Part shown: positions 3,862-64,000 of the stretch, in pieces | Layout: the number at the start of each line of letters is the position of its first letter | Position numbering within the stretch: position 1 is the first letter of the stretch | DNA from: Myxococcota bacterium | GTDB taxonomy: Bacteria; Myxococcota_A; UBA9042; PHBI01; JAWLBL01 | NCBI GenBank assembly: GCA_041687695.1 | Contig: JAWLBL010000001.1 | Coordinates: forward strand, 432,190-496,189 | Reading direction: 5' to 3' | Length of the DNA stretch: 64,000 nucleotides | The notes under the pieces: model-generated | Databases searched by the model: none | What the model saw: only the letters and a program-made list of their open reading frames with translations | Told to the model about the DNA's origin: nothing | Program-made: the position numbers and the translations under genes

Positions 3862-4105
3862 GCACCCGCGGGGCTCCCGTGCCAAGCGCGCCCCGGGCGC
3901 GGGGCAGGGGGGTCGAGTTCCAGTTCGGGCCACCTGACTGCACGAGCTCGCTCGTGCTCCGGCATGGCGCAGCTCGCTGCGCCCGCAAGGCTACAGTCCC
4001 ATCCCTCCGCGCGCAGCTAGCTGCGCGGGCCCTAGAGCCTGAGCAAGCTCGGGCCGTCAAACGCGCCCGTAGCTAGAACTCGATAGCCCTGGGGCGCGGG
4101 ACCGG

Positions 4106-35897: not shown

Positions 35898-38450
<2,553 letters not shown>

Positions 38451-38871
38451 GGGGAAGCCCTTTTCAGTTGGAGAGGATCGGAGAGGGGGCGAAGGGTGGC
38501 CCGGACCGTCGCAGGCCGTGCCGAGCCGCGCTCCGTGGGGGTGAAGCGCGGGCCAGGAGTGGGGCGCCCCAGGAGGCTCGGCCTCACGCGGAGGGCGCGA
38601 GCGAGGGCGTCGACGTGGCGCCTCGGACCAGGATCGGTCCCGGCGGCGACGATCGCGCGGCGGTGCCGGCGCGGCGGCGGCGTCGGCGGGACCGGTAGAG
38701 GTCCTGGCCGTGTGTTGCAGCAATCCGGGGGGCGCAGGGGGGACGAGCCCGGCCGCCGCGGCGACGCACGGGGAGGCGTCGTGGGGGGGAGGACTCGAGC
38801 TGCGTCGGTCAGCGGGGGGCTCCCACCAGCGTCGGTGCGGCACGTGCCACGGCTGGTTGGGATTGGAGACC

Positions 38872-38899
38872 ATGCTAGCCAGGGCTTCCTGCCAGTCAA
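38872..38899 (-). promoter_or_regulatory. Candidate sigma70 promoter for the TSP3/OmpA operon
   Basis: Minus strand TTGACT-N16-TAGCAT, ~420 nt upstream of ATG 38450. Confidence 0.4.
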
Positions 38900-39059
38900 C
38901 GCGCCGGTCCCGAAATGAGCTCCGAAGCGTGTCCCAGCCAGCGTTCATACGGTTGAACGGCTCGTAACGCCCGGCGATTGTGACGCGGCGAGGCCGCTTG
39001 CGGGCGGCGCCTTGACCCCAGGCGGCGGGGGGTCGAGAGTGGGACCACGCGCGGCACTC

Positions 39060-39075
39060 TGGCACATCCCTCGCA
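39060..39075 (+). promoter_or_regulatory. Candidate sigma54 (-24/-12) promoter
   Basis: TGGCAC-ATCCC-TCGCA against consensus TGGCAC-N5-TTGCW, 55 nt upstream of ATG 39131. Confidence 0.4.
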
Positions 39076-41303: not shown

Positions 41304-42668
41304 ATGCTGACCGTCCTGCTCGCCCTCGCCCTGCCCCTCCTGTCGCCCTTCGATCTCCGCGCGTCGGACGCGCTCGCGGCCCCGCCCCCCGTGACCGCGA
41401 TCGCCGGCAGCCTGTCCCTCGAGGCCCGCCTCGAGCGCTCGCTGGTCCACACGTCGGCCGCCCAGATCCACGCGCTGGTCAAGCTCACCGCGGCCGACGG
41501 GGTCGCGGCCGAGCGCCGGCCGGTCAACCTGGCGCTGGTCCTGGACCGGTCGGGCTCCATGGCCGGGCGCAAGATCGAAGACGCGCGCGCCGCCGCGCTG
41601 GCGCTGGTCGGGCAGCTGCAGGACGGCGACCGCGTGACGGTGGTCAGCTACGGCAGCGACGTGCGCGTGGACGTGCCGCCGACGGTGCTGGACGCCGCCG
41701 CGCGGCTCGAGGTGACGCGCGCCATCGTGCGCATCCGGCACGGCGGCCGCACGAACCTGGCGGGCGGGCTGAAGGTCGCCTACCACCAGCTGGCGCCCCA
41801 TCGCGACGCGGACCGGGTCACGCGGGTGGTGCTGGTCTCGGACGGGCTGGCCAACGTGGGCACGACGCAGCCGCGGCTGCTGGCGGCGTTGGCCCGCGCC
41901 GACTGGCAGGAGGGGACGGTCACGACGACGCTGGGGCTGGGCGTCGACTACAACGAGGATCTGATGACCGAGCTGGCCGTGCACGGGGGCGGCGGCTTCT
42001 ACCACGTCAGCCGATCGGAGCAGCTGGCCGGGGTGCTGAGCGACGAGCTGGCGCACATGCAGGCGACGGTGGCGCGGCAGGCCACGCTCGAGCTGACGCT
42101 GCCCGAGGGGGTGCGCGTCCGGGCGGTGCACGGGCACGCGGTCGCGCAGGAGGGGCGGACGGTGCTGGTCACGCTTGGAGATCTGTCGGCGGGGCAGTCG
42201 CGGTCGATCCTGTGGGCGCTCGAGCTGCCGCACGCGCAGCTCGGGGCGCAGCCGCTGGGTGAGATCGTGCTGCACTACACGGACGCGCGCGACGGGCAGC
42301 GGCGGGCGGCGCGCGGCGGCGCGATGCAGGTGACGTGGACCGGCGACCGCGTGGCGTCCGAAGCCAGCGTCGACCCCGAGGTGGCGGCGCGCATGGCCGA
42401 GCTGCAGCTGGCGGCGGCGATGGCGACGGCGGCCGACCACATGGCGGCCGGCGACCTGGACCAGGCCCAGCAGGTCCTGGGAGCGGCGACGCGGCGAGCG
42501 CGGAGCAACGCGGCGGGGTTCGGGGCGGTCGGGCAGCCGCTCGCGGACGAGGCCGCCGCCGCCGAGGCCATGCTGGACGACGTGAAGAAGGCGCCGGCCA
42601 GCCCGAAGGCGCGGCGCGAGCTGGCCAAGCAGGGCAAGGCCAAGGCCTTCGAGATGAGCCGACAGTAA
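41304..42668 (+). CDS. Secreted VWA-domain protein (YfbK-like)
   Basis: MIDAS motif LVLDRSGSM, GRTNL, LVSDGLAN, GLGVDYNE. Confidence 0.88.
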   Translation: MLTVLLALALPLLSPFDLRASDALAAPPPVTAIAGSLSLEARLERSLVHTSAAQIHALVKLTAADGVAAERRPVNLALVLDRSGSMAGRKIEDARAAALALVGQLQDGDRVTVVSYGSDVRVDVPPTVLDAAARLEVTRAIVRIRHGGRTNLAGGLKVAYHQLAPHRDADRVTRVVLVSDGLANVGTTQPRLLAALARADWQEGTVTTTLGLGVDYNEDLMTELAVHGGGGFYHVSRSEQLAGVLSDELAHMQATVARQATLELTLPEGVRVRAVHGHAVAQEGRTVLVTLGDLSAGQSRSILWALELPHAQLGAQPLGEIVLHYTDARDGQRRAARGGAMQVTWTGDRVASEASVDPEVAARMAELQLAAAMATAADHMAAGDLDQAQQVLGAATRRARSNAAGFGAVGQPLADEAAAAEAMLDDVKKAPASPKARRELAKQGKAKAFEMSRQ

Positions 42669-44140: not shown

Positions 44141-46183
44141 GTGCGAATCGCCCGGTGGCTGTTGGTCGGGACACTGATGACGACGCCCGCGTGCGGGGGC
44201 GGCGGGGGCGGGTCGTCGCCGGCCGACGTGGCCGACGACGCCAGCGAGGTCGAGACCGGCGGCGAGGGCGACGCAAAGGGTCAGGACGTGGCGGCGGACG
44301 TCGCCGAGGACACCGGGCCCACCGGACCGCCGCGTGTGTGCCGAGACGGCGCCGCGTGGGCGCCGGGGACCCGGGCGTTCACCGACGTGACCGAGGCCTG
44401 GGGCCTGACGGGCGTGACGGGCTTTCGCCTGGGCGCCGCGGACCTCGACGGCGACGGCTTCGCGGATCTCGTGGTGCGCACCCACGTCGTCAACGGGCGC
44501 GACGACTTCTCCGAGGGCGGCGCCCGCTACACGTTCGTGATGATGAACCGCGCGGGCGACGACGGCGCGCGCCAGTTCGTCGACACGACGCAGGCCAGCG
44601 GCTTCACGGCGCGGGTCGACGGGGGCGAGGGGCGGACCACCCACGTGGTCGTCTTCGGCGACATCGACAACGACGGCGATCTCGACGCGTTCTCGGGCGC
44701 CGGGGTCGAGACCGACCCCGCCAAGCCCGACAACGGCGACCACGGCGAGGTGCTCATCAACCAGGGCGACGGGACCTTCGTCCTGGGGCCCGGCGGCGAC
44801 GCGCGCTACCCGGTGCAGCGCCTGAACGTCGGCGGCGCGTCGATGCTGGACTACGACCGCGACGGCTTCCTCGACCTCTTCGTCGGCTTCGGCAACGGCG
44901 CCGACCAGCCGCTGCCCGACAAGCTCTACAAGGGCGACGGCCAGGGCTGGTTCACCGACGTGTCGAGTGAGGTCGGCCTGGTCACCAAGGACTGGAACCT
45001 CCTCAGCGACATCAACGCCGGCAAGGCCCACCGCAACACCTGGGGCACCACCGTCTGCGACGTGAACGACGACGGCCTGCCCGACCTGGTCACCGCCAGC
45101 TACGGCCGCGGCTTCAACGGCCTGTGGGTCGCGCGCCAGACCGACGACGGCGTGGTCTACGACGACATGGCCATCCCGAGCGGCGTCGGCCAGGACCACC
45201 GCGTCGACTGGACGACCAACCTGAACGCGCAGTGTTACTGCAAGCTCAACCCCGACGCCGAGGACTGCGACCAGGCCCCCGCCCCGCCCGCCTTCTTCGG
45301 CTGCAGCGCCGGCCAGCAGCTGCGCTGGAACCACGCCTACGACCGCATGCCCTTCCGCCTCGGCGGCAACACCTTCGGGACGGTCTGCGGCGACGTCGAC
45401 AACGACGGCGACCTCGATCTGATGACCCACGAGATCGTCCACTGGGACGTCGGCGACACCAGCGACCCGGCCGAGCTGCTCGTCAACGACGGCGCCGGCA
45501 CCTTCACGCGCCCCGGCAACGACGTCACCGGCCTCGTGCGCGACTACGACCGCGTCGACTGGAACGCGGGCGAGATGACCGGCGCCTTCCTCGACTTCGA
45601 CAACGACGGGCGCCTCGACGTGCTGCTCAACTCGTCCGACTACCCGGGGACGCACGCCTTCCTGTTCCACCAGCAGCCCGACGGCACCTTCGCCGAGGTC
45701 GCCCTCGCCGACGCCATCGACCACTACCGCTCCCACGGCATCGCCCTGGCCGACTTCGACCGCGACGGCGACCTCGACGTGGCGGTCGGCAGCAGCACCT
45801 CGCGCTGCAGCCAGGGCGACCCCGAATGCGCGGCCGGCAAGCAGGTCATGATCTTCCGCAACGACGCCGGCGACGCCCGCAACTTCGTGCAGCTGCAGCT
45901 CGTCGGCGGCCCCGGGTCGAACCGCTCGGCCATCGGCGCCCGCGTCACCGTCACGGCGGGCGGCGTCACCCAGACCCAGGAGGTCGGCGCCGGCTACGGG
46001 CACTACGCCGCCCAGAACGAGCTGACGCTGCACTTCGGCCTGGGCGCCGCCTGCGACATCGACGCCGTCACCGTGCGCTGGCCCGACGCCGCCGGCACGA
46101 CCGAGACCTTCGCCGGCGTGCTCGCCAACTACCGCGTCCGGCTGACCCAGGGCCAGGCGTCCCCCGACTACCTCGTCGACTGA
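44141..46183 (+). CDS. CRTAC1-like FG-GAP/VCBS repeat lipoprotein with ASPIC/UnbV C-terminal domain
   Basis: Repeated DxDxDGxxD motifs; NRSAIGARVTV...LHFGLG...VRWP. Confidence 0.88.
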   Translation: MRIARWLLVGTLMTTPACGGGGGGSSPADVADDASEVETGGEGDAKGQDVAADVAEDTGPTGPPRVCRDGAAWAPGTRAFTDVTEAWGLTGVTGFRLGAADLDGDGFADLVVRTHVVNGRDDFSEGGARYTFVMMNRAGDDGARQFVDTTQASGFTARVDGGEGRTTHVVVFGDIDNDGDLDAFSGAGVETDPAKPDNGDHGEVLINQGDGTFVLGPGGDARYPVQRLNVGGASMLDYDRDGFLDLFVGFGNGADQPLPDKLYKGDGQGWFTDVSSEVGLVTKDWNLLSDINAGKAHRNTWGTTVCDVNDDGLPDLVTASYGRGFNGLWVARQTDDGVVYDDMAIPSGVGQDHRVDWTTNLNAQCYCKLNPDAEDCDQAPAPPAFFGCSAGQQLRWNHAYDRMPFRLGGNTFGTVCGDVDNDGDLDLMTHEIVHWDVGDTSDPAELLVNDGAGTFTRPGNDVTGLVRDYDRVDWNAGEMTGAFLDFDNDGRLDVLLNSSDYPGTHAFLFHQQPDGTFAEVALADAIDHYRSHGIALADFDRDGDLDVAVGSSTSRCSQGDPECAAGKQVMIFRNDAGDARNFVQLQLVGGPGSNRSAIGARVTVTAGGVTQTQEVGAGYGHYAAQNELTLHFGLGAACDIDAVTVRWPDAAGTTETFAGVLANYRVRLTQGQASPDYLVD

Positions 46184-53364: not shown

Positions 53365-55113
53365 ATGACGCTGACCGCTCGGCTCGCCGCCGCGCGCCCC
53401 TGGCTCCCCCTCGTGGCCGCGCTCGCCCTCTTCCTCGCCCTCGCCGGCTGGTACGGAGAGGTCGCCGGCGTCTGGCACGAGGAGACCTCCATCTACCCCA
53501 ACCGGGGCTACCACATCCTCGCCCCGCCCGGCGAGCAGGCCCTCCCGCGCCTCGAGCCCTCCTGCGCCGACCCCGACGCCCCGCGCCTCATCCGCTCCCA
53601 GCAGCGCCCCATCCTCAGCCTCTGCGCCGGCGGCCGCGGCTACCCGGTCATGGTCGACTCCTACCTCGCCGGCTGGCTCTACTGGCCCGCCGACCTCCTG
53701 CGCCCCCTGCACGGCGACGACATCTTCGCCCTCCGCAAGCTCGGCCTCCTCCTCGGCGCCCTCAGCCTGGTCCTCACCTTCCTCCTCGTCCGCCGCCTCG
53801 CCGACGCCCGCCTCGCCGGCGCGGCCGCCCTCGTCACCGCCGCCTCCTCCTGCTTCGCCTACGCCCACGGCGTCCTCATCCACTACGAGTTCACCCCCTG
53901 GCCCCTCCTGGTCGGCGCCCTCCTCGCCCTCACCCGCGTCGCCCCCCTCGCCCCCGGCGCCCCCGCCGGCCCCCTCCCCTGGCGCTGGCTCCTCCTCGCC
54001 GCCCTCCTCGCCGGCGCCTCCGTCGCCGCCAACATCAAGACCGCCTTCCTCATCGCCCCCCTCGCCCTCGTCAGCCTCTGGCTCGGCGTCCGCTGGCGCC
54101 GCCTCCGCCCCGCCCACTGGCTCGCCATGGCCGCCGTCGCCGCCGTCCCCCTCCTGCCCACCGCCGCCTTCGCCCTGTTCGACCCCGGCGCCGCCTTCGC
54201 CCACCAGGTGAGCGGCCGCGTCGACATCCTCGGCGCCTTCACCCTCGAGCGCCTCGCCCGCCTGCCCATGAACCTGGCCATCTACTGGACCGACATGGGC
54301 GCCTACACCGAGCACCTCACCGGCACCCCCAGCCCGGTCAACTGGCTCACCGCCCTGCTCGCCTGGGCCTCCGTCCTCTACGCCGCCTCCGCCCTCGCCC
54401 GCGCCCGCGCCGGCGACGCCCGCACCCGCCTCGCCGCCGCCGCCGGCGCCGCCCTCCTCGTCTACTTCGCCGTCGTCCTCCTCCTGTACGACCAGTACCC
54501 CGAGGCCAACTACGCCCCCCTCCACTCCATCTTCGGCCTCGCCATGGCCGCCACCCTGCTCGCCCTCGCCCGCCGCCTGGCCGCCCTCGCCCCCGCCCTG
54601 TCGCCGGCCGCCGCCCCCGCCCTGGTCGCCCTGACCGCCGCCGTCCTCGCCTACAACTGCGTCCGCCGCGGCGCCCCCTCGGACACCATGCCCATGGGCA
54701 TCAACGCCGCCGCCCAGCGCGCCCTCGACGCCTGGCTCGACCAGCACCCCACCCCGGCCCCGCCCCTGCTCACCACCACCTACAACCTGGCCGGCGTCGT
54801 CGAAGCCATGGGCCCGCCCCCGGCCCGCGTCGTCCAGGCCAACCGCTTCCTGATGAACTGCCCGACCGACCCGCCGGCCGACGCCGACGCCTGCCTGACC
54901 CGCCGCTGGCGCGATCTCCTGGCCGCCTCGGACCCGGGCCCGCTGCACGTCCTGGCCCCGCGCAAGGCCAGCCCCATCGACGACCCGCTGACCGACCAGG
55001 TCGCCCCGGCCCTGCGCGCCGCCGCCGCCGCCCTCGGCCGCCGCGTCTCCGAAGCCCGCGCGTTCACGACCGGCCTGGGCGTCCCCGTCCTGGTCGTCTA
55101 CCGGGTCGACTGA
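53365..55113 (+). CDS. Polytopic membrane protein, probable GT-C (ArnT/PMT-like) glycosyltransferase
   Basis: TM1 followed by an acidic WHEET motif and periplasmic loop, then 10 or more TM segments with LRKL...TFLLVRRL; periplasmic C-terminal domain. Confidence 0.6.
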   Translation: MTLTARLAAARPWLPLVAALALFLALAGWYGEVAGVWHEETSIYPNRGYHILAPPGEQALPRLEPSCADPDAPRLIRSQQRPILSLCAGGRGYPVMVDSYLAGWLYWPADLLRPLHGDDIFALRKLGLLLGALSLVLTFLLVRRLADARLAGAAALVTAASSCFAYAHGVLIHYEFTPWPLLVGALLALTRVAPLAPGAPAGPLPWRWLLLAALLAGASVAANIKTAFLIAPLALVSLWLGVRWRRLRPAHWLAMAAVAAVPLLPTAAFALFDPGAAFAHQVSGRVDILGAFTLERLARLPMNLAIYWTDMGAYTEHLTGTPSPVNWLTALLAWASVLYAASALARARAGDARTRLAAAAGAALLVYFAVVLLLYDQYPEANYAPLHSIFGLAMAATLLALARRLAALAPALSPAAAPALVALTAAVLAYNCVRRGAPSDTMPMGINAAAQRALDAWLDQHPTPAPPLLTTTYNLAGVVEAMGPPPARVVQANRFLMNCPTDPPADADACLTRRWRDLLAASDPGPLHVLAPRKASPIDDPLTDQVAPALRAAAAALGRRVSEARAFTTGLGVPVLVVYRVD

Positions 55114-57044
55114 GCCCCGCCGCCGCCGCCCAGCAGCGCCTCGAGCCGCGCCGCCAGCCCGCGCACCCACTCCGGCCGCGCCTCGCAGGCCCGCCCCTGC
55201 CACTGCCCGCGGTACCCCAGCGCGAACCCGGCCGCCCGCACCAGCGCCCGCCGCTCGGCGACGTCCGGCTCGATGTCGACCGCCTGCAGCGCCCCCTCGC
55301 GCGCGAACAGGGCCACCGCGCCGTCGCCGGCCGGGACCAGCTCGTGAAGGCGCCACCCGTCCAGCCCGCCGCTCGCCTCGACCTGCCGCAGCAGCTCGCC
55401 CAGCAGCAGCTTCAGGCCGTGCTCGCCCGCCACGTCCGGCGCCGCCTCCCCATCGTCCCCGGCCGAGAGGCCGGCCTGCCGAACCGGGTCGCCCGCCGGC
55501 GCCGTCGGCGCGCCGAAGTAGGTGCTGACCCGCCCGTGCCGGTCCAGCCAGGCCTCGACCTCGTCGTCTCCCAGCTCGGGCAGCAGCCTGCGAATCAGGT
55601 GCTCGCGCGGGATGGGCGAGCTGACGACCAGGCGGCCGCCGAAGCGCTCGAACACCCCCAGAAAGCGCCGCGCCCGCACCCGCGGGTCGCCGCCCGGCGT
55701 GGGCGTGCGCCAGTCGTAGCCGCGCGTCGGCCCCTCGGCGGTGGCCAGCAGCCCCTGGTCCATCGCGTCGGGCATGCGCATCAGCGGCATCACCCCCAGC
55801 TCGCTGATGACCCCCAGGTCGATGGCCCAGTCCATGAAGTCCAGCGTCTCGCGGTAGTCGGCTTCGGTCTCCTCGGGGAAGCCCACGATGACGTTGACGC
55901 TGACCTGCATGCGGCCGCCGCCGACCGCTCCGATGGTCTCGAGAGCCCGCGCCACCTCGTCCGCGCGCCCCGGCTTCTTCACGCGCCGGCGCAGGCGCTC
56001 GCTGGCGGTCTCGAGGCCGAAGAAGGGGCGCGTCAGGCCGGCGGCCAGGTACTTCACCACGCGGGCGGGCGTGATGCGCCCGTCGATGATGATCATCGCC
56101 TGCAGCGCGGTCGAGGTGGTCCAGCGGGCGGCGGCGATGGCGTCGCACAGGGCGTCGAACTGCGCGGGCCAGGCGTTGGCGGCAGCGTCGCACAGGGTCA
56201 GCGACAGGTGCGGAGCGGGGCCGCCGGCGTGCAGCGCCTGCCACGCCCGCACGGCCTGGTCCATCTCGGCGGCGACGCGGGCGGCCTCGCGGAACTGCAG
56301 ATCGGGGTACAGGTTGGTGTTCGAGCAGAACACGCAGCGGAACGGGCAGCCCAGGCTCAGCAGGAACGGCACGTCGGGCGCCGGGGTGCCGCGGACCAGG
56401 GCGACGTGGCGGGTGTAGTCGATGGGCGGGATGCGCGGCGAGTCCAGGCGCGGCGGCGGCGCGGCGGGCGGCGTCCCGTGCCGCGGGTTGACCCAGACCC
56501 CCTCCAGGGAGACCTCGCCCAGGCGCCCGGCGAGGGCGGCGCGAAACAGCGGCACGGCGACCGACTCGGCGCGGCGCGAGGCCACGGCGTCCACCCACGG
56601 CTGCTGCAGATCGCCCGCGAAGGTCACCGCCTCGGGCCCGCCCAGCACGACCAGCAGGTCGGGGCGGCGCTCCTTGAGGCGGCGCGTCAGGGTCAACGTC
56701 ACGTCCGCGTTGTGGCGCCACACCGACAGCCCCAGCACGGGCTCGGGCACTGCGGCCAGTCGGTCGAGCAGCGCGTCGAACCAGCCCGCGTGCCGCCGCG
56801 CCAGCGCCTCGATCCGCGCCAGGCGGTCGTCCATCGGCGGCGACGACCAGGCCGTGCGCGCCGCGGCGTCCATCACGTCGGCCGGCGTGTCGGTCGGATC
56901 GTCCAGAAAGCGCAGCGCGCGCGCACCGATGCCGGCCTCCTCGAGCAGCCCGCCGACGAGGACGAGCCCCATCCCCAGCCAGGGACTGGCCTCGTAGGGC
57001 GGCAACATGGCGAGCGCGACCTGCACGCCGCCATGGTCGTTCAA
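55098..57044 (-). CDS. B12-binding-domain radical SAM enzyme (class B methyltransferase-like)
   Basis: N-terminal VLGLSVW...VVLGGPE; GCPFRCVFC (CxxxCxxC); FGLETAS; IVGFPEET. Confidence 0.88.
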   Translation of the reverse strand: MNDHGGVQVALAMLPPYEASPWLGMGLVLVGGLLEEAGIGARALRFLDDPTDTPADVMDAAARTAWSSPPMDDRLARIEALARRHAGWFDALLDRLAAVPEPVLGLSVWRHNADVTLTLTRRLKERRPDLLVVLGGPEAVTFAGDLQQPWVDAVASRRAESVAVPLFRAALAGRLGEVSLEGVWVNPRHGTPPAAPPPRLDSPRIPPIDYTRHVALVRGTPAPDVPFLLSLGCPFRCVFCSNTNLYPDLQFREAARVAAEMDQAVRAWQALHAGGPAPHLSLTLCDAAANAWPAQFDALCDAIAAARWTTSTALQAMIIIDGRITPARVVKYLAAGLTRPFFGLETASERLRRRVKKPGRADEVARALETIGAVGGGRMQVSVNVIVGFPEETEADYRETLDFMDWAIDLGVISELGVMPLMRMPDAMDQGLLATAEGPTRGYDWRTPTPGGDPRVRARRFLGVFERFGGRLVVSSPIPREHLIRRLLPELGDDEVEAWLDRHGRVSTYFGAPTAPAGDPVRQAGLSAGDDGEAAPDVAGEHGLKLLLGELLRQVEASGGLDGWRLHELVPAGDGAVALFAREGALQAVDIEPDVAERRALVRAAGFALGYRGQWQGRACEARPEWVRGLAARLEALLGGGGGAQSTR

Positions 57045-57084: not shown

Positions 57085-57921
57085 CTACAGGCGGACGCGG
57101 CGCAGGCGCTTGAAGGCGTCGGCGCCGTCGGTCAGCAGCTTGACCACCCCGCGCGCCCACCAGAAGTTGACCGACACGCTGGCGTCCAGCGAGCGCACCT
57201 GGTGCCACCAGCGCCCGGGCAGGTACAGCAGATCGCCCGGGTGCAGGTCGACCACCAGCGGGCGGGCGTCGCGATAGCGCGGGAAGCGGCGCAGATCGGG
57301 GGCCTCGGGGTCGACGGCGCAAAAGCGCGGCAGTCGCGACAGGAACGGGTACTCGTAGACGCGGCCGTCGTCGCGCGGCGCCAGGATGTGCAGGCGCTTG
57401 CGGCCGCGCAGCTGGGCGAACAGGTTGTCGGGGAAGTCGCGGTGCAGCGGCGAGACGGTCCCGGCGGCGCTCACCCACAGGCGACTCTTCAGGCGCGAGG
57501 CCGCGCCGGCGACCGCGGGCAGCTGGACGTCGTCCAGCAGCGCGGGCAGCCGCTCCTGCACCGGGATGACGACGTAGTGGCCGGGGTCGCTGCCGGCCTC
57601 GACGCGGTCCAGCGCCTCGGCCAGCGACAGCTCGAGATAGGTGATGCCCACGCGCGGGTCGCGGCCGCCGACCACGCCGCGCGGGGTGCGGGCCACCGGG
57701 ACCACGACCTGCCCGTGCTCGGCGCGCAGCCGCTCGGGGGTCCAGCGCGAAAACGCCGGCCAGCGGTCGACGTAGCCGGTGAAGACGGCGGGGCGCTGCG
57801 GCTCGACGAAGTCGCGCACGAAGGCGGCCTCGGACGGCATCGGCAGGCGCGGGATGCGCTCCGGCGCCTCGGGGCGGCTGGTCAGGCGCCGCAGCTCGGC
57901 CCACAAGGCGGCGGGGCTCAC
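57085..57921 (-). CDS. JmjC/cupin_8 Fe(II)/2-oxoglutarate oxygenase B
   Basis: PLHRD..DN...GRK...PGDLLYLPGRWWHQV; GTG start overlaps the upstream TGA (GTGA). Confidence 0.88.
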   Translation of the reverse strand: MSPAALWAELRRLTSRPEAPERIPRLPMPSEAAFVRDFVEPQRPAVFTGYVDRWPAFSRWTPERLRAEHGQVVVPVARTPRGVVGGRDPRVGITYLELSLAEALDRVEAGSDPGHYVVIPVQERLPALLDDVQLPAVAGAASRLKSRLWVSAAGTVSPLHRDFPDNLFAQLRGRKRLHILAPRDDGRVYEYPFLSRLPRFCAVDPEAPDLRRFPRYRDARPLVVDLHPGDLLYLPGRWWHQVRSLDASVSVNFWWARGVVKLLTDGADAFKRLRRVRL

Positions 57922-58724
57922 CGGCTGACGCCCCACAGGCGCTTGAAGGCCCCGGCGGCCGCGGTGACGGCCAGGCGCGCGCCGGTGGCCCACCAGACGT
58001 TGACCGTCAGGCTGGCCTCGAGGGTCGCGACGTGGTGCCACCACCCTCGGGGCAGGAACAGCGTCTCGCCGGGCGCCAGCTCACAGACGTGCGGCCGCGC
58101 CCGGGCGACCCGCGGGAAGCGCTGCAGGTCGACGGCGTCGAGATCGACCCGGCTGGCGTTGGGCACCCCGGCGAACAGCCGCCCCGGATACAGGTTGGGG
58201 CTGTCCTCGGGCGCGAACAGGGTGAAGCGCTTGGACCCGACGATCTGCGCGTGCAGGTTGTCGTTGATGTCCCAGTGCAGCGACGAGCGCGTCCCGCGGG
58301 CCGAGAACCAGACCTTGCACAGCTTCCACGGCGCGCGCCGGCAGTACGGGAAGTCGCCCACCTCGGCCCGCAGCCCGACCGGCAGCTGGTCGAGCCGCGC
58401 CATCATATAGGCGCTCGCCTCGTCGGCCTCCAGCCGGTCCATCAGCGCCCCCAGCGCCATCGGCGTCGTGACCAGCCCCCGCCGCGGGTCGACCTGCACC
58501 ACCCCGCACCGCACCGGCAGCACCGGCACCTGCGCGTCGCCGAAGCGCTGCCGGAGATCCCCCGTCGACCACCGCCGCCGCGCCGGCCAGCCCTCGACCA
58601 GCCCCCGCACCACCACCGGCCGCCGCCGCGCGACGTACCACCGCTGGAACGCCCGGCGGTCCGGCGCCTCGACACGCTCAATCGGCACGGCAGGCAACAT
58701 CGGCGGCGCTCCCCGGTCGCTCAT
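57918..58724 (-). CDS. JmjC/cupin_8 Fe(II)/2-oxoglutarate oxygenase A
   Basis: RRPVVVRG...WPA..RW, SLHWD..DN...GSK...PGETLFLPRGWWHHV. Start at 58724 or 58700. Confidence 0.88.
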   Translation of the reverse strand: MSDRGAPPMLPAVPIERVEAPDRRAFQRWYVARRRPVVVRGLVEGWPARRRWSTGDLRQRFGDAQVPVLPVRCGVVQVDPRRGLVTTPMALGALMDRLEADEASAYMMARLDQLPVGLRAEVGDFPYCRRAPWKLCKVWFSARGTRSSLHWDINDNLHAQIVGSKRFTLFAPEDSPNLYPGRLFAGVPNASRVDLDAVDLQRFPRVARARPHVCELAPGETLFLPRGWWHHVATLEASLTVNVWWATGARLAVTAAAGAFKRLWGVSR

Positions 58725-58841
58725 CGCTCGGCCCGCCCAGTCTAAGTCGCCCACGCGCCGAAGCAAGCGGCCCCCGCCTCGCGGCCACCGTCGAAGGGTC
58801 ATCGCGAGGCCGGGACGGTGTCGTCGCCGCCGCAGGCGGCC

Positions 58842-58934
58842 CCGCGCCGGCCATGCCGGCGCTATGGACCGCGCCGGCCATGCCGGCGCTATGGACCGCG
58901 CCGGCCATGCCGGCGCTATGGACCGCGCCGGCCA
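58842..58934. repeat. 27-bp tandem repeat (~3.4 copies), each with an 8-bp inverted repeat
   Basis: Unit ccGCGCCGGC-cat-GCCGGCGCtatgga at 58842, 58869, 58896, partial at 58923. Confidence 0.9.
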
Positions 58935-59040
58935 CTCCAAGGCTTTTGGACTCTCCCATGGCCCCCCCACCCTCCGGGCCCCCCTTGAGCGCCTCGGCCC
59001 GCCCGCCCTATGATGCGCGTCACACCCCGGGAGGCACCCC

Positions 59041-60381
59041 ATGCTCGACTATCGGCTCGACATCCAGTGGCTGGAGCACATGAACGAAGGCCTCGAGCGC
59101 GCCCGCGCCCTGCGCCGGCCGGTCGTCCTCAAGCCGCTCGGCCAGGGTCGGGGGTGCTTCGAGCAGTGGTGACCCGCCGGATCTCTTGCGAGGGCCGTGA
59201 GCCTCTCCGATCCGCGTGTCAGCCGCTTGCTCAACGAGGCCTTCGTCCCGGTGGTGTTCAGCATGCACCTCCAGGGACCGGGGGTCGATGACCCCGCGCG
59301 CGCGTTCATCAACGCCCAGCGTCCGCAGGGCCAGTCGGACATCCACCCGCCGGACACCTACGTCGTCGACCCCGACGGGCAGGTCCTGGGCCACATCCGC
59401 TACGACGCGGGCGTGCCCGAGACCCTCGCCTTCCTGCGCGACATCCTGAAGGCCCACCCCCAGCTGGCGCCCCCCGACCCCCTCTTGGTGTCCCCCGCGC
59501 CGCCCGCCGACGACGCCGAGGCCACCCTCCTCGCCCTCGAGGCCCGCTACGACTCGGACGACAAGGCCGGCCTCGTCGCCGACCTCGAGGCCTGGCTCGC
59601 CCAGCACGCCGACCGCCTCCCCGGCGCGGCCGCCCTGGCCCGCACCCTGCTCGCCGGCGCCCTCTACTACGCCGGCGACCTCGCGGGCGCCCAGCACCAC
59701 TGGCAGCGCATCGTCGACGAGCACCCCGACCACCCGGTCCGCCACCGCGCCGCCTACAACCTCATCGAGCCCAACGCCTGGCCCAGCCCGGTCCACCCTG
59801 AGCTGCGCGACGCCCGCCACCCCGACGTCGCCGAGCGCGGCCTCATCGTCCCCTCCCCCGACCTGCGCGCCGCCAACCTCGCCCGCGTCGCCTCGGATGA
59901 CCGCTACGTCCAGGTCCGCCCCCACCTCCCCTTCGCGCGCATCCCGGCGGGCACCTTCACCATGGGCGGCTCCCCCGCCCTGCAGGCCCGCGAGCTGCCC
60001 AACCGCCGCGTGACCCTCTCGCGCCCCTTCCTCCTCAGCGCCTGGCCGGTCACCCGCCGCCTCTGGCGCCACTTCCGCCCCGACGCCTTCCCCGGCGCCC
60101 TCTCCGAAGGCCTCGCCGGCGATCTCCCCGCCCTTCAGATCAGCTGCGACGAGGCCGACGCCTTCGTCGCCTTCCTCTCGGCCCGCGACGGCCGCCGCTA
60201 CCGCCTGCCCACCGAAGCCGAGTGGGAGTACGCCGCCCGCGGCGGCCTCGAGGGCAAGGCCCACCCCTGGGGCGACGAGCCGCCCGACCCCACCCGCTGC
60301 AACTACCTGAACCCGCGCGCCGTCCCGGTCGCCTGCTACCCGCCCAACGGCTATGGCCTGTTCGACAACGTCAGTCAATAG
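59041..60381 (+). CDS. Putative selenoprotein: thioredoxin-like (Sec44), TPR-like and FGE-sulfatase (SUMF1/EgtB-type) domains; C-terminally interrupted
   Basis: GGAGG + ATG 59041 is in frame with ORF 59197-60381 through a single TGA (59170-59172): IQWLEHMNEGLERARALRRPVVLKPLGQGRGCFEQW-U-PAGSLARAVSLSDPRVSRLLNEAFVPV. FGE motifs IPAGTFTMG, RLPTEAEWEYAARGG, PNGYGLFD are present; GNxWEW is absent. Confidence 0.8.
59179..59213 (+). promoter_or_regulatory. Bacterial SECIS-like hairpin
   Basis: GGATC/GATCC lower stem, GAG-GGC/GCC-T-CTC upper stem, apical loop CGTGA starting 23 nt after the UGA with G at loop position 2. Confidence 0.7.
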
Positions 60382-60521
60382 CAAGGTGCGAAGGGGTCAC
60401 CTACGGGTCGACCTAACCTTGCGTGCTGAAAGGATGTTGTCGTTTTCCGGTTGGACTTCATCGGTTGCTCTACGCTCGCTCCACGGATCTACGTTCAGAT
60501 CCGACTAACGAGGAACGATCG

Positions 60522-60806
60522 ATGACGACCTACGAGACGATCGAAGGATTGGGCGAGTACGTCCCCCTCGCGGATTGCTTCGTGTTGGATGATGGGGGGT
60601 TCGCCGTCGTGCTAGAGGACGGGCAGGTGCTAGTGGTCCAGCGCCGCTGGTGGGGACGCTGGCAGGCGCAGTTCAACTACCCCGGTCGCGACCACCTGAC
60701 CGCCGTGGCGTCCGGCGACACCATCGAGCAGATGGCCATCGACCTCGCCCATTGGTGGGGGCGGAGGAGTTCAGCGCGACCGCATAGGATGCGCGGCACC
60801 CGATGA
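60522..60806 (+). CDS. Hypothetical protein (element)
   Basis: GAGGA before ATG 60522; protein-like composition. Confidence 0.55.
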   Translation: MTTYETIEGLGEYVPLADCFVLDDGGFAVVLEDGQVLVVQRRWWGRWQAQFNYPGRDHLTAVASGDTIEQMAIDLAHWWGRRSSARPHRMRGTR

Positions 60807-60894
60807 GCATGTCGCACGGCTATGGCCGACAATCGATGGCCCCCGGTAGACGGCCTGGCACGAGCGGGTGGAGGATGCTCCCAGGAGGTACCTC

Positions 60895-61299
60895 ATGAAC
60901 GCGGGAAGCATCATCAGGTTCGTTGAACGCGCCAACGACTTCATCCAAGCGCACTCGAAGCGGGCACGGCGCGACGACGATGAACTGCGGGTGGCTTTGC
61001 AAAGCGTGCCTCAGCTCGTCGCGTACCTGAAGCGGAAGAGTTCTCTTGTTGATGGCGAGGAGCGGCTTGTCGACCTGGCAGTGGTCGGCGAACGCCTGTA
61101 CCGCTTGGCGCGTGACCTCAGAGGTTCACGTGCGCTCGCTGGTCAGGCAGGCAACTGGAGAGGCCTGGAAGAGGGCTGGCCACACCTTCAGACCTACTTG
61201 AGGCGCCATCGCCCGCATCAGGACTTCGTACTGCTGTCGGACCTTATCCAGCGCGTCATGGACGAGGTTCTTACGACTGCAACAACGCCTGAAGCCTAG
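60895..61299 (+). CDS. Hypothetical helical protein (element)
   Basis: AGGAGG before ATG 60895. Confidence 0.6.
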   Translation: MNAGSIIRFVERANDFIQAHSKRARRDDDELRVALQSVPQLVAYLKRKSSLVDGEERLVDLAVVGERLYRLARDLRGSRALAGQAGNWRGLEEGWPHLQTYLRRHRPHQDFVLLSDLIQRVMDEVLTTATTPEA

Positions 61300-61409
61300 G
61301 TTCAGCCCGGGGCTCCCTGGATTCGCGCGACCCACGGTAGACAAGATTTTCCAGGCGCCTGTAGATAGGGGAGCCCGTCACGGCTTCCCTCATCAACAGG
61401 AGCACCCTC

Positions 61410-62063
61410 TTGAGCGACGTTCCCTACTACATTCAGGAGATGGTCGACGACGCCAGGCTGGTTCTACCCGGACTGGACTGGCAGCCGTTGCCTTCCGGCA
61501 TCGAAGCCAAGGTGATGCCCGGCATCAACATCTCCGTCGTCATCCTTGAGGACGACGCAGGCTTCTATGCTTCGTGCAGCCCGTTCGGTGAGTTGGTCGC
61601 TGTCCACGGCAAGAACATGACGCTTGAGGAAACCCTACGGGTCCTCAGTCGGCAGTTGAACAAGGTCGAAGAGGCGATCCATCACAGCCGTGAAGGCGTC
61701 GGCGTTGTAAATCCGCTGGGGCAGCGTGGCAGGTTCGAGAAGGTGGTCTGCGACCTGCTTCGCATCCTTCGCGACGCCACTGATCCCGGGATGGGGCGCA
61801 AGGTGGATGAGTTCCTCTCCACCCTGGACGAGGATGACGTGTGGCGGATCAAGGTCGTGATGTACGCCGGAAGGGAAGGAGAGACCCTCGCAGCCGTCTC
61901 TCGCTCCACGCCCTGCGAGGGCAAGAGCCTCGACAGCCTCTGCATCAGTGAGAAGACCTTGATGCTCAGGCGCTACCTGCTCACGGGCTTCTCGGCAGCC
62001 CGCGAGCAGAAGTTCGACCTCGAAGGGTTATGGACGCCGCGAGTGCGCCCCATGGTCTTCTGA
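61410..62063 (+). CDS. Hypothetical protein with DUF3775-like C-terminus
   Basis: AGGAG + TTG start; FLSTLDEDDVWRIKVVMYAGRE...LRRYLLTG. Confidence 0.6.
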   Translation: MSDVPYYIQEMVDDARLVLPGLDWQPLPSGIEAKVMPGINISVVILEDDAGFYASCSPFGELVAVHGKNMTLEETLRVLSRQLNKVEEAIHHSREGVGVVNPLGQRGRFEKVVCDLLRILRDATDPGMGRKVDEFLSTLDEDDVWRIKVVMYAGREGETLAAVSRSTPCEGKSLDSLCISEKTLMLRRYLLTGFSAAREQKFDLEGLWTPRVRPMVF

Positions 62064-62157
62064 TCGTAACTCCGTCGCTTCAAGGTTGGCGGCGAACTTG
62101 TTACACCGGGTGAGGGCTTGCAGGAGCGGGCTCTCTCACCAGGGTGTGGAGGAAGTT

Positions 62158-62310
62158 ATGAGCGGCATTGAAAGTGAAGGTGTGTTCGAGCCTAGTGACC
62201 GTCAGCAGAAGCAGGACGAGGCGGCTCGCCAGATACTGGACGACAGCCGAGCGGGTTTCCCCGTGTCTTTCGCCATCGGGATGGAGGACTTCGACGAGAA
62301 CGAGGACTGA
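62158..62310 (+). CDS. Small acidic protein (50 aa)
   Basis: GGAGG before ATG 62158; MSGIESEG...EDFDENED. Confidence 0.45.
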   Translation: MSGIESEGVFEPSDRQQKQDEAARQILDDSRAGFPVSFAIGMEDFDENED

Positions 62311-62321
62311 GAAATCCCTGG

Positions 62322-63056
62322 TCAACACGCGGGGGTTGGGCAGCACATTTTGCGGCGAGCCGGCCGACCCTCGCTGACCGCGTACCGGTCCCGGATGGCC
62401 TGCCGGAGCTGTCGTTCGTCCTTCGGCGAGAGGGTGTGCTTCATCCTGCCCGCCTTGTCGCCCATCGACCGCACCCCGATCTCTTGGGCGACCCGCCACG
62501 CGGTCGTGTAGCCGATCCCTTCTTCCCGGGCTACGTCAGGGATGCTGCAACGCGATGCCAGCCAGTCGGTCACACGCCTGCACTGGTCCTCCGTCAGCAT
62601 GAACCGGGCGCCGCGCCGGTTCGACGTGCGCGTCACCTTGATGCCCAGGACTTCGATTGCGGCGAACACGTCCCCCTTCGACCATCCGCTGTCCCTGGCG
62701 AGCTGCGTGACCGTGTAGCCGCGATGGTGGGCGGTCCCGAGCAGTACGACCATCCTCTCGTTGATGGACTCGCGGGACCGTTCCAGTGCCGTCGCGATGG
62801 CCGCCTTGCTGGTCGTCCCCCACAAGGCGAGCAGGCGGTTGTCCTCCTCGGGCGTCCAGGGTTGACGGTGCCGCTCAGGCTTGTCGTCGTCGGTCGTCCG
62901 CCGCCCGTGCAGGGCCACCCAGCGGGACGCGGCAGCGGCCGGTGTGCGGCCGAGGGCCTTGCCGATGACCGGCCACCGGTGGCCTTCACGCCGCAGGGCG
63001 GTCAGGCGGGAATCGTCGTCGGGCGTCCAGCGTCGCTTCGGGGTCGGTGCGTTCAC
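62322..63056 (-). CDS. Myb/SANT-like repeat and HTH DNA-binding protein
   Basis: RRWTPDDDSRL...WPVIGKALGRT...RW and QPWTPEEDNRLL...IATALERS, followed by HTH-like segments. Confidence 0.75.
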   Translation of the reverse strand: MNAPTPKRRWTPDDDSRLTALRREGHRWPVIGKALGRTPAAAASRWVALHGRRTTDDDKPERHRQPWTPEEDNRLLALWGTTSKAAIATALERSRESINERMVVLLGTAHHRGYTVTQLARDSGWSKGDVFAAIEVLGIKVTRTSNRRGARFMLTEDQCRRVTDWLASRCSIPDVAREEGIGYTTAWRVAQEIGVRSMGDKAGRMKHTLSPKDERQLRQAIRDRYAVSEGRPARRKMCCPTPAC

Positions 63057-63166
63057 GAAGGACGCTACCCGGCGGGTCGAGCCATTCGACCTATTCGACT
63101 TGACCGCTGAACATCCGAGCAGTAGCCTGCGGTTCGGTACTGGCGGGCGCCAGTTCCGACGCGCGT

Positions 63167-63892
63167 TCAGCGCATCACCATTGATTGGAGTATCAACTCA
63201 TGACCATCACTGAACGTGGCCGCTTCCTCATCGAGGCCAAGAAGAACCAGCTCGACGTGCGGGTCTCGAACCCGTCCAGCGATGACCTGATCACGCTCGG
63301 CATCGGTCTCATTGCCGCCGGGCTGCTCTTCAAGGCGCTCGCGGGTTGAGGTGGGTCCAACGCGGTGGCTGACCCGATGTTCGCGCTGACGGTCAGCCAC
63401 TCCGCGCCAGGAGCCCTCAGAGCCCGAGACGAGCCGCAAGAGTTGCGAACGCGAAGCCTGCAACCAGCGGGTCCACGCCGTTGCCGAGCATCTTGAGGCG
63501 GTCCAGCCGATCGGGACCCCCATCAGCCACTCTAGGAACGCCGGCGCCAATGGCCCGCCGATGGCTGCGTTGACCGCCCAGGTCTTCCGCCGCCTCTGGG
63601 CGGGGCCTCCCGAGTTCTTCGCGTCGTTGCAGGTAGGCGTCGGCCAGCGCCCCGTGCCGTTGAGAAGGACGCACCACTCGACCGGGAAGGGCTCCACATC
63701 GCCGGAGGGCGTCACCACGTCGAGCAGGTCGCCGTTGCAGAGCCAGACCTCGCCCGCCCAGATGTCGTCCACGCCACCCCAATCGAGGTCGGCTTCGGTC
63801 ACCACCACCACCGCGCCTTCCCAGAATGAAGATCCTCGCCCTGGCGTGCGTGGCGCCAACGTCTTCCGATCTGAACAGATCCCAGCAAACAT
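63167..63892 (-). CDS. Overlapping alternative-frame ORF carrying MTase motif IX-like sequence
   Basis: WPTPT...GGPLAPAFLEWLMGVPIGWT in a different frame over the same DNA. Start uncertain (possibly GTG near 63811 after GGAAGG). Confidence 0.5.
   Translation of the reverse strand: MFAGICSDRKTLAPRTPGRGSSFWEGAVVVVTEADLDWGGVDDIWAGEVWLCNGDLLDVVTPSGDVEPFPVEWCVLLNGTGRWPTPTCNDAKNSGGPAQRRRKTWAVNAAIGGPLAPAFLEWLMGVPIGWTASRCSATAWTRWLQASRSQLLRLVSGSEGSWRGVADRQREHRVSHRVGPTSTRERLEEQPGGNETDAERDQVIAGRVRDPHVELVLLGLDEEAATFSDGHELILQSMVMR
63200..63349 (+). CDS. Small single-TM protein (49 aa), below the ORF-track cutoff
   Basis: GGAG at 63187-63190; MTITERGRFLIEAKKNQLDVRVSNPSSDDLITLGIGLIAAGLLFKALAG*. Confidence 0.55.
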   Translation: MTITERGRFLIEAKKNQLDVRVSNPSSDDLITLGIGLIAAGLLFKALAG

Positions 63893-63905
63893 CGAACCCG
63901 AGGTG
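63417..63905 (-). pseudogene. C5 DNA-cytosine methyltransferase C-terminal half (motifs VII, VIII, X), frame broken at its 5' side
   Basis: Frame reads HLGFDVCWDLFRSEDVGATHARARIFILG...RVADGGPDRLDRLKMLGNGVDP; in-frame TGA at 63906-63908; upstream GDL lies in another frame. Confidence 0.7.
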
Positions 63906-64000
63906 TCAGGTCCCCCCTTCCCAACCCGGTAGCGGGAGGGTAGGTCCAGAATTGGCGTCCCTCGTCCTGCGCGGCGATACCGAGAGCCGTGGGCGGGACG

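Follow-up and report, generated by a model that had tools for sequence, protein, structure and literature searches.

The subject of this analysis is a predicted selenoprotein gene near the end of a 64,000-nucleotide stretch of DNA from a Myxococcota bacterium (assembly GCA_041687695.1), here called the window, which ends where contig C1 ends. The most probable reading, to which a probability of about 0.82 is assigned, is that of one gene in which an in-frame UGA at codon 44 encodes selenocysteine (Sec), within a protein that joins a thioredoxin fold, a tetratricopeptide-repeat-like (TPR-like) region and a domain of the formylglycine-generating enzyme (FGE) fold. After codon 442 the gene is cut by an integrated element. 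The open reading frame (ORF) begins at ATG 59041 and runs through 43 sense codons to TGA 59170-59172; the same frame then stays open for 402 more codons and ends at TAG 60379-60381. An earlier reading made from the letters alone (the sequence-only reading) had placed the GGAGG, the ATG, the 43 codons and the TGA at precisely these positions and had estimated some 400 codons beyond the stop, in agreement with the count. The GC content of the gene at third codon positions (GC3) is 95.3%. The public gene calls split the locus into a 43-aa ORF (P0143, identical) and a 394-aa ORF from GTG 59197 (P0001). The features of the gene and of its interruption are the following:

59030..59034, plus strand: Shine-Dalgarno sequence GGAGG, 6 nt before the start codon, read from the sequence.
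59041..59169, plus strand: codons 1-43, helix and strand beta-1 of the thioredoxin-like domain, conserved in homologues.
59170..59172, plus strand: UGA, predicted Sec codon, residue 44, in the motif W-U-P-A-G, from homologue comparison.
59179..59213, plus strand: putative selenocysteine insertion sequence (SECIS) hairpin, from fold and codon usage, with covariation not supporting it.
59041..59455, plus strand: thioredoxin-like domain, residues 1 to about 138, from AlphaFold2, Foldseek and sub-threshold Pfam matches.
59480..59770, plus strand: TPR-like helical region, residues about 148-243, with a conserved HP.HP..HR motif; boundaries approximate.
59938..60366, plus strand: FGE-sulfatase-like domain, truncated, residues 300-442, profile positions 7-180 of 255 (Pfam PF03781).
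60361..60366, plus strand: TTCGAC core common to both junctions, the gene's final host-derived bases; the same hexamer lies at C57:5914-5909.
60367..64000, no strand: left part of the inserted element, GC 58-68%, up to the contig end, from the GC drop and ORF content.

The comparison of homologues bears directly on the identity of codon 44. With the read-through protein as query, a word-indexed search listed 120 proteins, subsets of which were aligned. At the position equivalent to the TGA, 11 of the 12 N-terminally complete homologues have Cys (W-C-P-A) and one has Ala (P0024, W-A-P); Trp occurs in none of the 12. The 43 residues that precede the TGA align along their whole length, and W10, Q35, G36 and W43 are invariant in this 12-homologue alignment. 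A larger alignment of 62 database homologues comprises 11 N-terminally complete proteins, 50 that start late and one that aligned oddly (P0061). The 50 late starters begin at residues equivalent to 53-85 of the window protein, which corresponds to the first start codon past the TGA. P0052 corresponds to the gene of genome L093 as the gene callers shortened it, and P0053, also in truncated form, carries the NCBI label 'SUMF1/EgtB/PvdO family nonheme iron enzyme'. Three pairs of members (P0010/P0033, P0022/P0041 and P0015/P0040) report equal longest-contig values (48219, 63616 and 20499, respectively), which suggests two paralogues on one contig in some organisms.

At the DNA level, a genome search that reads through stops, carried out with the N-terminal 300 residues, matched 3 genomes among 401 sampled from the phylum and 4 among 107 from the class, both counts taking in the window's own genome. 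Every match contains exactly one in-frame stop, and this stop is TGA. A metagenome scan returned eight loci, five being family members with a stop at this site and three ordinary DUF255 proteins with C-H-W-C. The nine family loci (the window, genomes L093, L094 and L107, and metagenome contigs L096-L100) all place TGA at the same aligned codon, never TAA or TAG, at protein identities of 40-50%. No second in-frame stop was found in the family loci, and the reading frame is kept on both sides of the TGA. Because L094, L099 and L100 are mutually close, the nine loci amount to about six or seven independent lineages.

Furthermore, a profile search with the N-terminal 280 residues against 1.84 billion representative proteins yielded 153 matches at E ≤ 1e-3. 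Among these are twelve mini-ORFs, 39-59 aa long, whose last residue falls at profile position 42-43, immediately ahead of Sec. One of the twelve is the window's own 43-aa ORF, and the mini-ORFs would be the orphaned first pieces of further Sec forms. With about 50 truncated calls and 12 mini-ORFs set against roughly a dozen Cys forms, Sec forms appear to outnumber Cys forms in the family. A scan of genome contigs with the full-length alignment, whose patterns derived from the FGE domain, found no family member among 79 loci, all of them generic FGE-domain loci with 27-51% identity over about residues 224-446.

These data also bear on how the TGA may otherwise be read. Were it a true stop, the locus would hold two genes, of 43 aa and of 394 aa from GTG 59197, or would carry a nonsense mutation or a sequencing error. 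The gene callers gave exactly the pair P0143 and P0001, the 3' end of the gene is already damaged, and the contigs from the public run miss the TGA. However, the retention of TGA in 9/9 loci at such divergence, the Cys in 11 of the 12 full-length homologues and the fact that a stop here would separate strand beta-1 from helix alpha-1 of a single thioredoxin fold speak against termination, which is regarded as very improbable. Decoding of the TGA as Trp or Gly, through an alternative code or general suppression, has nothing in its favour except the open frame. The homologues have Cys at the site rather than Trp or Gly, each gene holds one in-frame TGA, and the L096 homologue itself terminates in TGA; this explanation is scarcely credible.

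The genome is equipped for Sec incorporation. It contains selA, selB, selD and a tRNA-SeC (anticodon tca, on C25), selD scoring 371.9 bits against a cut-off of 125. The selD product is a selenoprotein itself, with an in-frame TGA at position 1531 of L001 (G000:C8) in the context TTGG-U-AAKLGP, followed by a GGUCC/GGACC hairpin whose loop, GGC, lies 17 nt after its UGA. In the three other TGA-form genomes selB is over the cut-off in all three and selA in two, the selA-less genome being 67% complete. The sequence-only reading had proposed that homologues be compared at codon 44 and that the sel genes be sought in the genome, and both comparisons turned out as it anticipated. Decoding of the UGA as Sec is supported by the pairing of Cys and TGA at one aligned position, by sequence conserved before and after it, by the folds and by the presence of the Sec machinery, and at the level of the family the in-frame TGA is, on this comparative evidence, very probably a Sec codon.

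Directly after the UGA, the transcript can form a two-stem hairpin. Its lower stem pairs GGAUC (59179-59183) with GAUCC (59209-59213), the upper stem pairs 59190-59195 with 59201-59207 with U 59204 bulged, and the loop CGUGA (59196-59200) begins 23 nt after the UGA. Criteria of the bSECISearch type place the loop 16-37 nt from the UGA, with a G in the first two loop bases. The 66-nt fold has an energy of -28.9 kcal/mol, compared with -23.15 +/- 2.82 for 200 dinucleotide shuffles (z -2.04; 7/200 as good). All nine loci can form a hairpin with an apical loop of 3-5 nt that contains a G and starts 18-24 nt after the UGA, and seven of them share one register (loops CGUGA, GUC, GUG, AGUUA and GGUC). 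In shape and distance the hairpins agree with the general bacterial SECIS model. The claim that the codons after the stop break the GC3 bias holds as well: 5 of the 17 codons following the TGA end in A or T versus 15/428 elsewhere in the gene (Fisher p = 4.8e-4). Ranked by rarity within their genes, all with strong GC3 bias, the 15 codons after the TGA stand at 2/431 in the window, 7/514 in L097 and 12/511 in L093. This codon choice is the sole independent sign of RNA-level constraint at the hairpin.

Several observations weigh against the hairpin and, to a lesser number, against the Sec reading of this locus. L093 and L097 need another register, about 6 nt more 5' (loops CGGGC and CGUGC). The RNAalifold consensus comprises only three pairs and reveals no covariation for a shared hairpin; in the structure proposed here 70.4% of cells pair versus 66.7 +/- 2.3 in shuffles (42/500 reach this value), and the covariation score is 0.099 versus 0.098 in shuffles. 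When the 36-nt hairpin segment is replaced by synonymous, protein-preserving shuffles, most loci fold as well, the fraction of shuffles folding at least as well as the native sequence being 0.199 for the window and 0.024-0.821 across all loci. Much of the hairpin can be accounted for by conservation of the sequence as such, because the peptide R-A-V-S/G-L/F-S, encoded where the stem lies, is itself conserved. The codon anomaly is absent in three of six genes, L094 (197/464), L107 (248/474) and L096 (116/514), whose rarity ranks are unremarkable and whose GC3 bias is weaker. The hairpin comparison, moreover, is drawn from TGA-form loci alone. As for the Sec codon, the public-run contigs (one low-depth run, X1, share 0.07) span the left junction of the insertion and not the TGA, and the 48 public-run pieces that matched are mostly less than 90% alike and come from other FGE-domain genes. 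In addition, selA is present in 84 of the 107 class genomes, so the co-occurrence of the TGA form with the machinery discriminates little and constitutes weak evidence. Of the hairpin first proposed, the stems, the CGUGA loop and the 23-nt spacing stand, and a hairpin of fitting shape can form in nine of nine loci, but covariation does not appear; a SECIS function is likely from position and shape.

The protein predicted by read-through is consistent with this assignment. AlphaFold2 models the first 150 residues of the window protein with a predicted local distance difference test (pLDDT) of 87.0 and a predicted template modelling score (pTM) of 0.84. In Foldseek this model matches 3f9u best (E 2.5e-6, template modelling score (TM) 0.64-0.66), followed by DsbH 2ju5, DsbD-gamma 2fwe, 7tkv, 2lst and 3ira; the thioredoxin-fold matches overall range over E 2.5e-6 to 1e-4 and TM 0.55-0.66. 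The proposal of a single thioredoxin-like domain spanning the stop is thus borne out by both programs, and the model points to a thioredoxin fold of the DsbH/DsbD-gamma type. Pfam Thioredox_DsbH (PF03190) reaches 18.1 bits, under its 27-bit cut-off, and the homology of the N-terminal domain to this family is distant. In a profile alignment to thioredoxin 2lst (E 0.015, weak) the Sec column coincides with the first Cys of CPYC, in line with the earlier suggestion that the stop occupies the site of the redox Cys.

The active-site segment reads U/C-P-A-G/A in place of the C-x-x-C dithiol motif, only its first position being kept, and the models indicate a single nucleophile, without a resolving residue, at the N-terminus of helix alpha-1. 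A Cys five residues before the stop had also been noted. Cys39 is indeed present, but it is not conserved among the homologues: the upstream Cys lies at -5 in the window, at -4 in L093 and L096 and at -3 in L107, and is absent elsewhere, so that the pattern varies across the family between Cx4U, CxxxU, CxxU and none. The upstream Cys is not a conserved partner of Sec. Nothing in these results points to the likeness to a SELENON segment that the sequence-only reading had drawn, though no test was aimed at it.

For the architecture as a whole, the intact homologue L093 (526 aa, 68-row alignment) was modelled by AlphaFold2 with pLDDT 93.8 and pTM 0.91. In this model a helix (12-22) and a strand (26-31) are followed by a loop carrying Sec42 and by a helix (43-53); the thioredoxin fold extends to about residue 131, five helices occupy residues 151-237 and the FGE fold begins at about residue 285. 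The TPR matches of the middle region are weak (TPR_6 E 0.095; CTPR3 E 0.02-0.07). The C-terminal domain of the window protein matches Pfam FGE-sulfatase PF03781 over residues 300-442 with E 1.4e-23 and 84.3 bits against a cut-off of 23.3, and its RLPTEAEWE and PWG motifs are conserved. In Foldseek, the L093 C-terminal domain finds the human, Streptomyces and Thermomonospora FGE, PvdO, ToxD, CalU17, EgtB and OvsA (best E 4.5e-15, 1y1h; TM to target 0.6-0.73). Pfam, AlphaFold2 and Foldseek hence agree on the three-domain reading of thioredoxin, TPR-like and FGE-sulfatase parts. NCBIfam holds no model for the architecture, all matches being partial FGE-fold hits far under their cut-offs.

The gene does not reach the end of its FGE-type domain, a feature that lies beyond the account of the sequence-only reading. 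The profile match stops at position 180 of 255 because the host sequence ends at 60366 and the remaining codons come from inserted DNA; past 60350 the GC content falls from about 76% to 58-65%. In tblastn the missing C-terminus was found on contig C57 of the same genome, at 5914-5666 on the minus strand, 56% identical to residues 443-526 of P0002 and reading FDMIGNNFEW on to a stop. The hexamer TTCGAC is present at both junctions (window 60361-60366; C57 5909-5914), and joining the two parts there would give GLFD-MIGNNFEW, which is the family consensus. Inverted symmetry around this core is weak (19/38 positions). As assembled, the gene encodes residues 1-442 followed by N-V-S-Q and a TAG from the element, with the loss of about 85 C-terminal residues.

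The inserted, lower-GC DNA amounts to at least 3.6 kb in the window (60367-64000) and 7.4 kb on C57 (5915-13292), at least 11 kb together. One of its genes, L110:6216-8039, lies some 300 bp away from the C57 junction; the product is a large serine recombinase of 608 aa that matches Resolvase (E 1.4e-6), Recombinase (E 1.3e-5) and phrog_95 (E 4e-34). The cargo comprises two DNA methyltransferase-like proteins, a primase/helicase-like ORF and Myb/HTH regulators, of which the ORF scan places in the window:

62322-63056, minus strand: Myb/HTH regulator in the element.
63167-64000, minus strand: methyltransferase-like ORF in the element.

The gene is therefore truncated at 60366 by an integrated, prophage-like element with a large serine recombinase. 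An identical 98 nt closes or opens several contigs (C1 496092-496189, C57 13194-13291, C38 62608-62705, C60 9409-9504 and C55 1-99) and is probably the edge of a multi-copy repeat, such as an insertion sequence, whose body lies outside the assembly. As both C1 and C57 end in this sequence, the element is not fully assembled. The 300 nt just ahead of the 98-nt repeat have an 88% identical counterpart at C1:7680-7981. In a public run with the label activated sludge metagenome, a 151-nt contig covers 60267-60417 with a single mismatch and so records the left junction outside the present assembly, although this run may be the source sample itself.

The arrangement resembles the Bacillus subtilis genes split by large-serine-recombinase elements, SPbeta in spsM and skin in sigK: here too a reading frame is interrupted, a recombinase lies beside one junction and the two ends share a short core. 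It is conceivable that the element acts as a reversible switch, excising precisely at TTCGAC under some condition and restoring the full-length gene. This would account for the recombinase some 300 bp from the junction, for the consensus GLFD|MIGNNFEW obtained upon rejoining, and for an upstream part of the gene that is free of other stops and has kept its rare-codon hairpin. Unlike SPbeta and skin, however, no excision or reconstitution was seen in the one low-depth run, which shows the occupied junction, and no excisionase or directionality factor was identified among the element's ORFs. Considering also that the element is incompletely assembled and that plain insertional inactivation fits the same data, a switch is unlikely.

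The alternative that the cell makes a truncated 446-residue product, consisting of the Sec-thioredoxin domain, the TPR-like region and two thirds of the FGE-like domain, with its redox function kept, is judged slightly less probable still. The start codon, the Shine-Dalgarno sequence, the UGA and the hairpin are intact, the element supplies a nearby stop, and FGE-less thioredoxin-plus-TPR relatives exist. On the other hand, profile positions 181-255 of the FGE fold are lost, including core strands in the homologue model, and a fragment of a fold cut in this way usually misfolds.

The short flanks (1-3 kb) of six loci were scanned with Pfam. In the window, L107 and L096, the gene has oxygenase folds of the Fe/2-oxoglutarate type next to it. 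In the window these are a divergent Cupin_8/JmjC protein upstream and a PhyH fusion directly downstream of the C57 piece, the latter a 785-aa PhyH-Amidohydro_1 protein at L110 (G000:C57) 3229-5583 (minus strand), in the same direction as the C-terminal piece. L107 has a WelO5-like/2OG-FeII_Oxy_3 protein directly upstream, and in L096 PhyH proteins stand on both sides of the homologue. Three loci also have a radical-SAM protein nearby: a B12-binding one in the window, a SPASM one in L096 and a HemN-like one in L097. In L097, furthermore, a tryptophan-halogenase-type flavoprotein ends at the gene start, while a class-V aminotransferase is found near the L094 gene and a cyclophilin near the L093 gene. 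None of the ORFs scanned in these flanks matched a sulfatase. The neighbours within the window are:

57918..59042, minus strand: divergent neighbour, a Cupin_8/JmjC-type oxygenase-fold protein (Pfam Cupin_8 E 4.1e-49).
55098-57044, minus strand: B12-binding radical-SAM protein upstream of the gene (Pfam flank scan).

The first ATG of the cupin ORF overlaps the selenoprotein ATG by two bases, and the true cupin start is consequently probably internal. Farther away in the window, the product of 35898-39065 (minus strand) is 1055 aa long and contains 13 thrombospondin type-3 repeats (E 2.5e-129), near which VWA and FG-GAP/ASPIC proteins lie at 41304-42668 and 44141-46183.

Mechanistically, the 43-codon and 394-codon ORFs would form a single gene in which SelB and Sec-tRNA(Sec) decode the UGA of codon 44, probably guided by the hairpin a few bases downstream. 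The Sec would then be the lone redox-active residue, in W-U-P-A-G/A at the N-terminus of helix alpha-1 and without a resolving Cys, in a thioredoxin domain joined via the TPR-like region to the FGE-sulfatase-fold domain. The selenol might attack a sulfur or oxidised sulfur of a substrate or partner held by the FGE-like domain, and may thus serve as a redox-active or sulfur-accepting partner for the ligand of that domain. The gene neighbours suggest an oxidative tailoring pathway, which the protein would share with the adjacent Fe/2-oxoglutarate-type oxygenases and radical-SAM enzymes. In this genome the integrated serine-recombinase element interrupts the gene after codon 442.

Three findings count against this functional picture. 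The neighbours differ between loci. Of the 67 aligned members, only 15 have both of the cysteines near the C-terminus that correspond to the catalytic, copper-binding pair of FGE, as mapped by motif position, the HMMER alignments to solved FGE chains ending before this segment. Finally, the C-terminal piece of this genome reads NEMSKISHRNSWR and has neither of the FGE-type Cys residues. On this sequence evidence the C-terminal domain should not be called an FGE.

The predicted protein can be compared with several known systems. It resembles the thioredoxin-fold bacterial selenoproteins with U-x-x-C/S/T in that Sec, at the start of helix alpha-1, stands in for a nucleophilic Cys, and shares with thioredoxin-fold selenoproteins the Cys homologues, the hairpin after the UGA and a host with selA, selB, selC and selD. 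Known examples include a Sec-containing thioredoxin, a DsbA-like protein and a Thioredoxin_7 'PDZ domain-containing protein' (PMC9312934 Table 1). Unlike these, it reads W-U-P-A-G/A, with no Cys, Ser or Thr at +3, and belongs to a DsbH/DUF255-like branch fused to TPR-like and FGE-like domains. The FGE-sulfatase fold is common to FGE (human SUMF1, Streptomyces coelicolor, Thermomonospora curvata), PvdO, ToxD, CalU17, EgtB, OvoA and OvsA. The present family differs from FGE by the rarity of the Cys pair, absent from this genome's copy, and by the lack of an adjoining sulfatase in the six loci. In contrast to EgtB, OvoA and SenA it has no DinB-type iron domain, its N-terminus being a thioredoxin fold, and it falls far from the SenA and EgtB equivalogs of NCBIfam (29.1 bits against a cut-off of 420 and 28.1 against 360, respectively). 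A further likeness is to the CnoX/YbbN 'chaperedoxins', thioredoxin-plus-TPR proteins in which a domain with a single active-site thiol or selenol precedes TPR-like helices; CnoX, however, has neither an FGE domain nor Sec. In structure, the YbbN homologue of Salmonella is only weakly similar (3qdn, E 1.4e-3, TMq 0.41), and the ESM-Atlas look-alikes, clusters of Thioredoxin_2/_7 plus TPR with scores of 0.85-0.86, are leads only.

A sister family of FGE-less thioredoxin-plus-TPR proteins of about 280-360 aa (P0147, P0150, P0154, P0158, P0163 and others) was also noticed. The five named proteins start V/M-L/F-R-A-G, and many entries of this family begin 6-7 residues past the Sec-equivalent position, which is Cys in P0141 and P0149, Asp in P0134 and Gly in P0144. 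Four N-terminally complete sister proteins have a hydrophobic, signal-peptide-like start, as judged by eye. From where its entries begin, the sister family may be another mis-called selenoprotein family. No copy of it was found in this genome, since tblastn with P0134, P0141, P0144, P0147 and P0149 matched the present gene alone.

As regards novelty, a 2022 review lists 87 bacterial selenoprotein families (PMC9312934 Table 1), and the BSepDB main text counts up to 111 (PMC13326102). A PF03781 or PF03190 family is absent from the 87-family table. An FGE-type/DUF255/TPR family was likewise not found in five main texts: a 2026 review (PMC13188914), PMC12013277 (deep-Sep), PMC13326102 (BSepDB, family table excluded), PMC2398784 (the GOS study) and the preprint 10.1101/2022.07.06.499078. 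Literature joining selenoprotein or selenocysteine with FGE-type terms yielded nothing relevant, subscription journals lying outside the coverage. The sequence-only reading knew of no described selenoprotein with this architecture, and none was found in the selenoprotein literature searched, which leaves the BSepDB family table outside its scope. The family and the architecture are thus new in the sense of not found, rather than absent, and the decoding mechanism is that of an ordinary bacterial selenoprotein. Because public gene calling divides or shortens almost every member (50 of 62, plus the 12 mini-ORFs), surveys of domain architecture miss the family unless the UGA is translated.

Characterised members of the FGE/EgtB/SenA fold make or oxidise C-S and C-Se bonds. 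In its broadest form the interpretation is only tentative: an undescribed, fairly widespread and mostly Sec-containing family may act as a redox or sulfur/selenium-handling partner in oxidative tailoring of a peptide or small molecule, its split by the element being perhaps reversible, and the FGE-less sister family may use Sec as well. If the Sec reading is true, this family would be the first, within the literature searched, to combine a Sec active site with the FGE/EgtB/SenA fold, and it would point to a possible connection between the redox chemistry of selenoproteins and the enzymes of oxidative tailoring. Each new selenoprotein family shows where selenium chemistry gives an advantage, and the interruption of this one by a recombinase-bearing element offers a concrete case for asking whether mobile elements switch selenoprotein genes.

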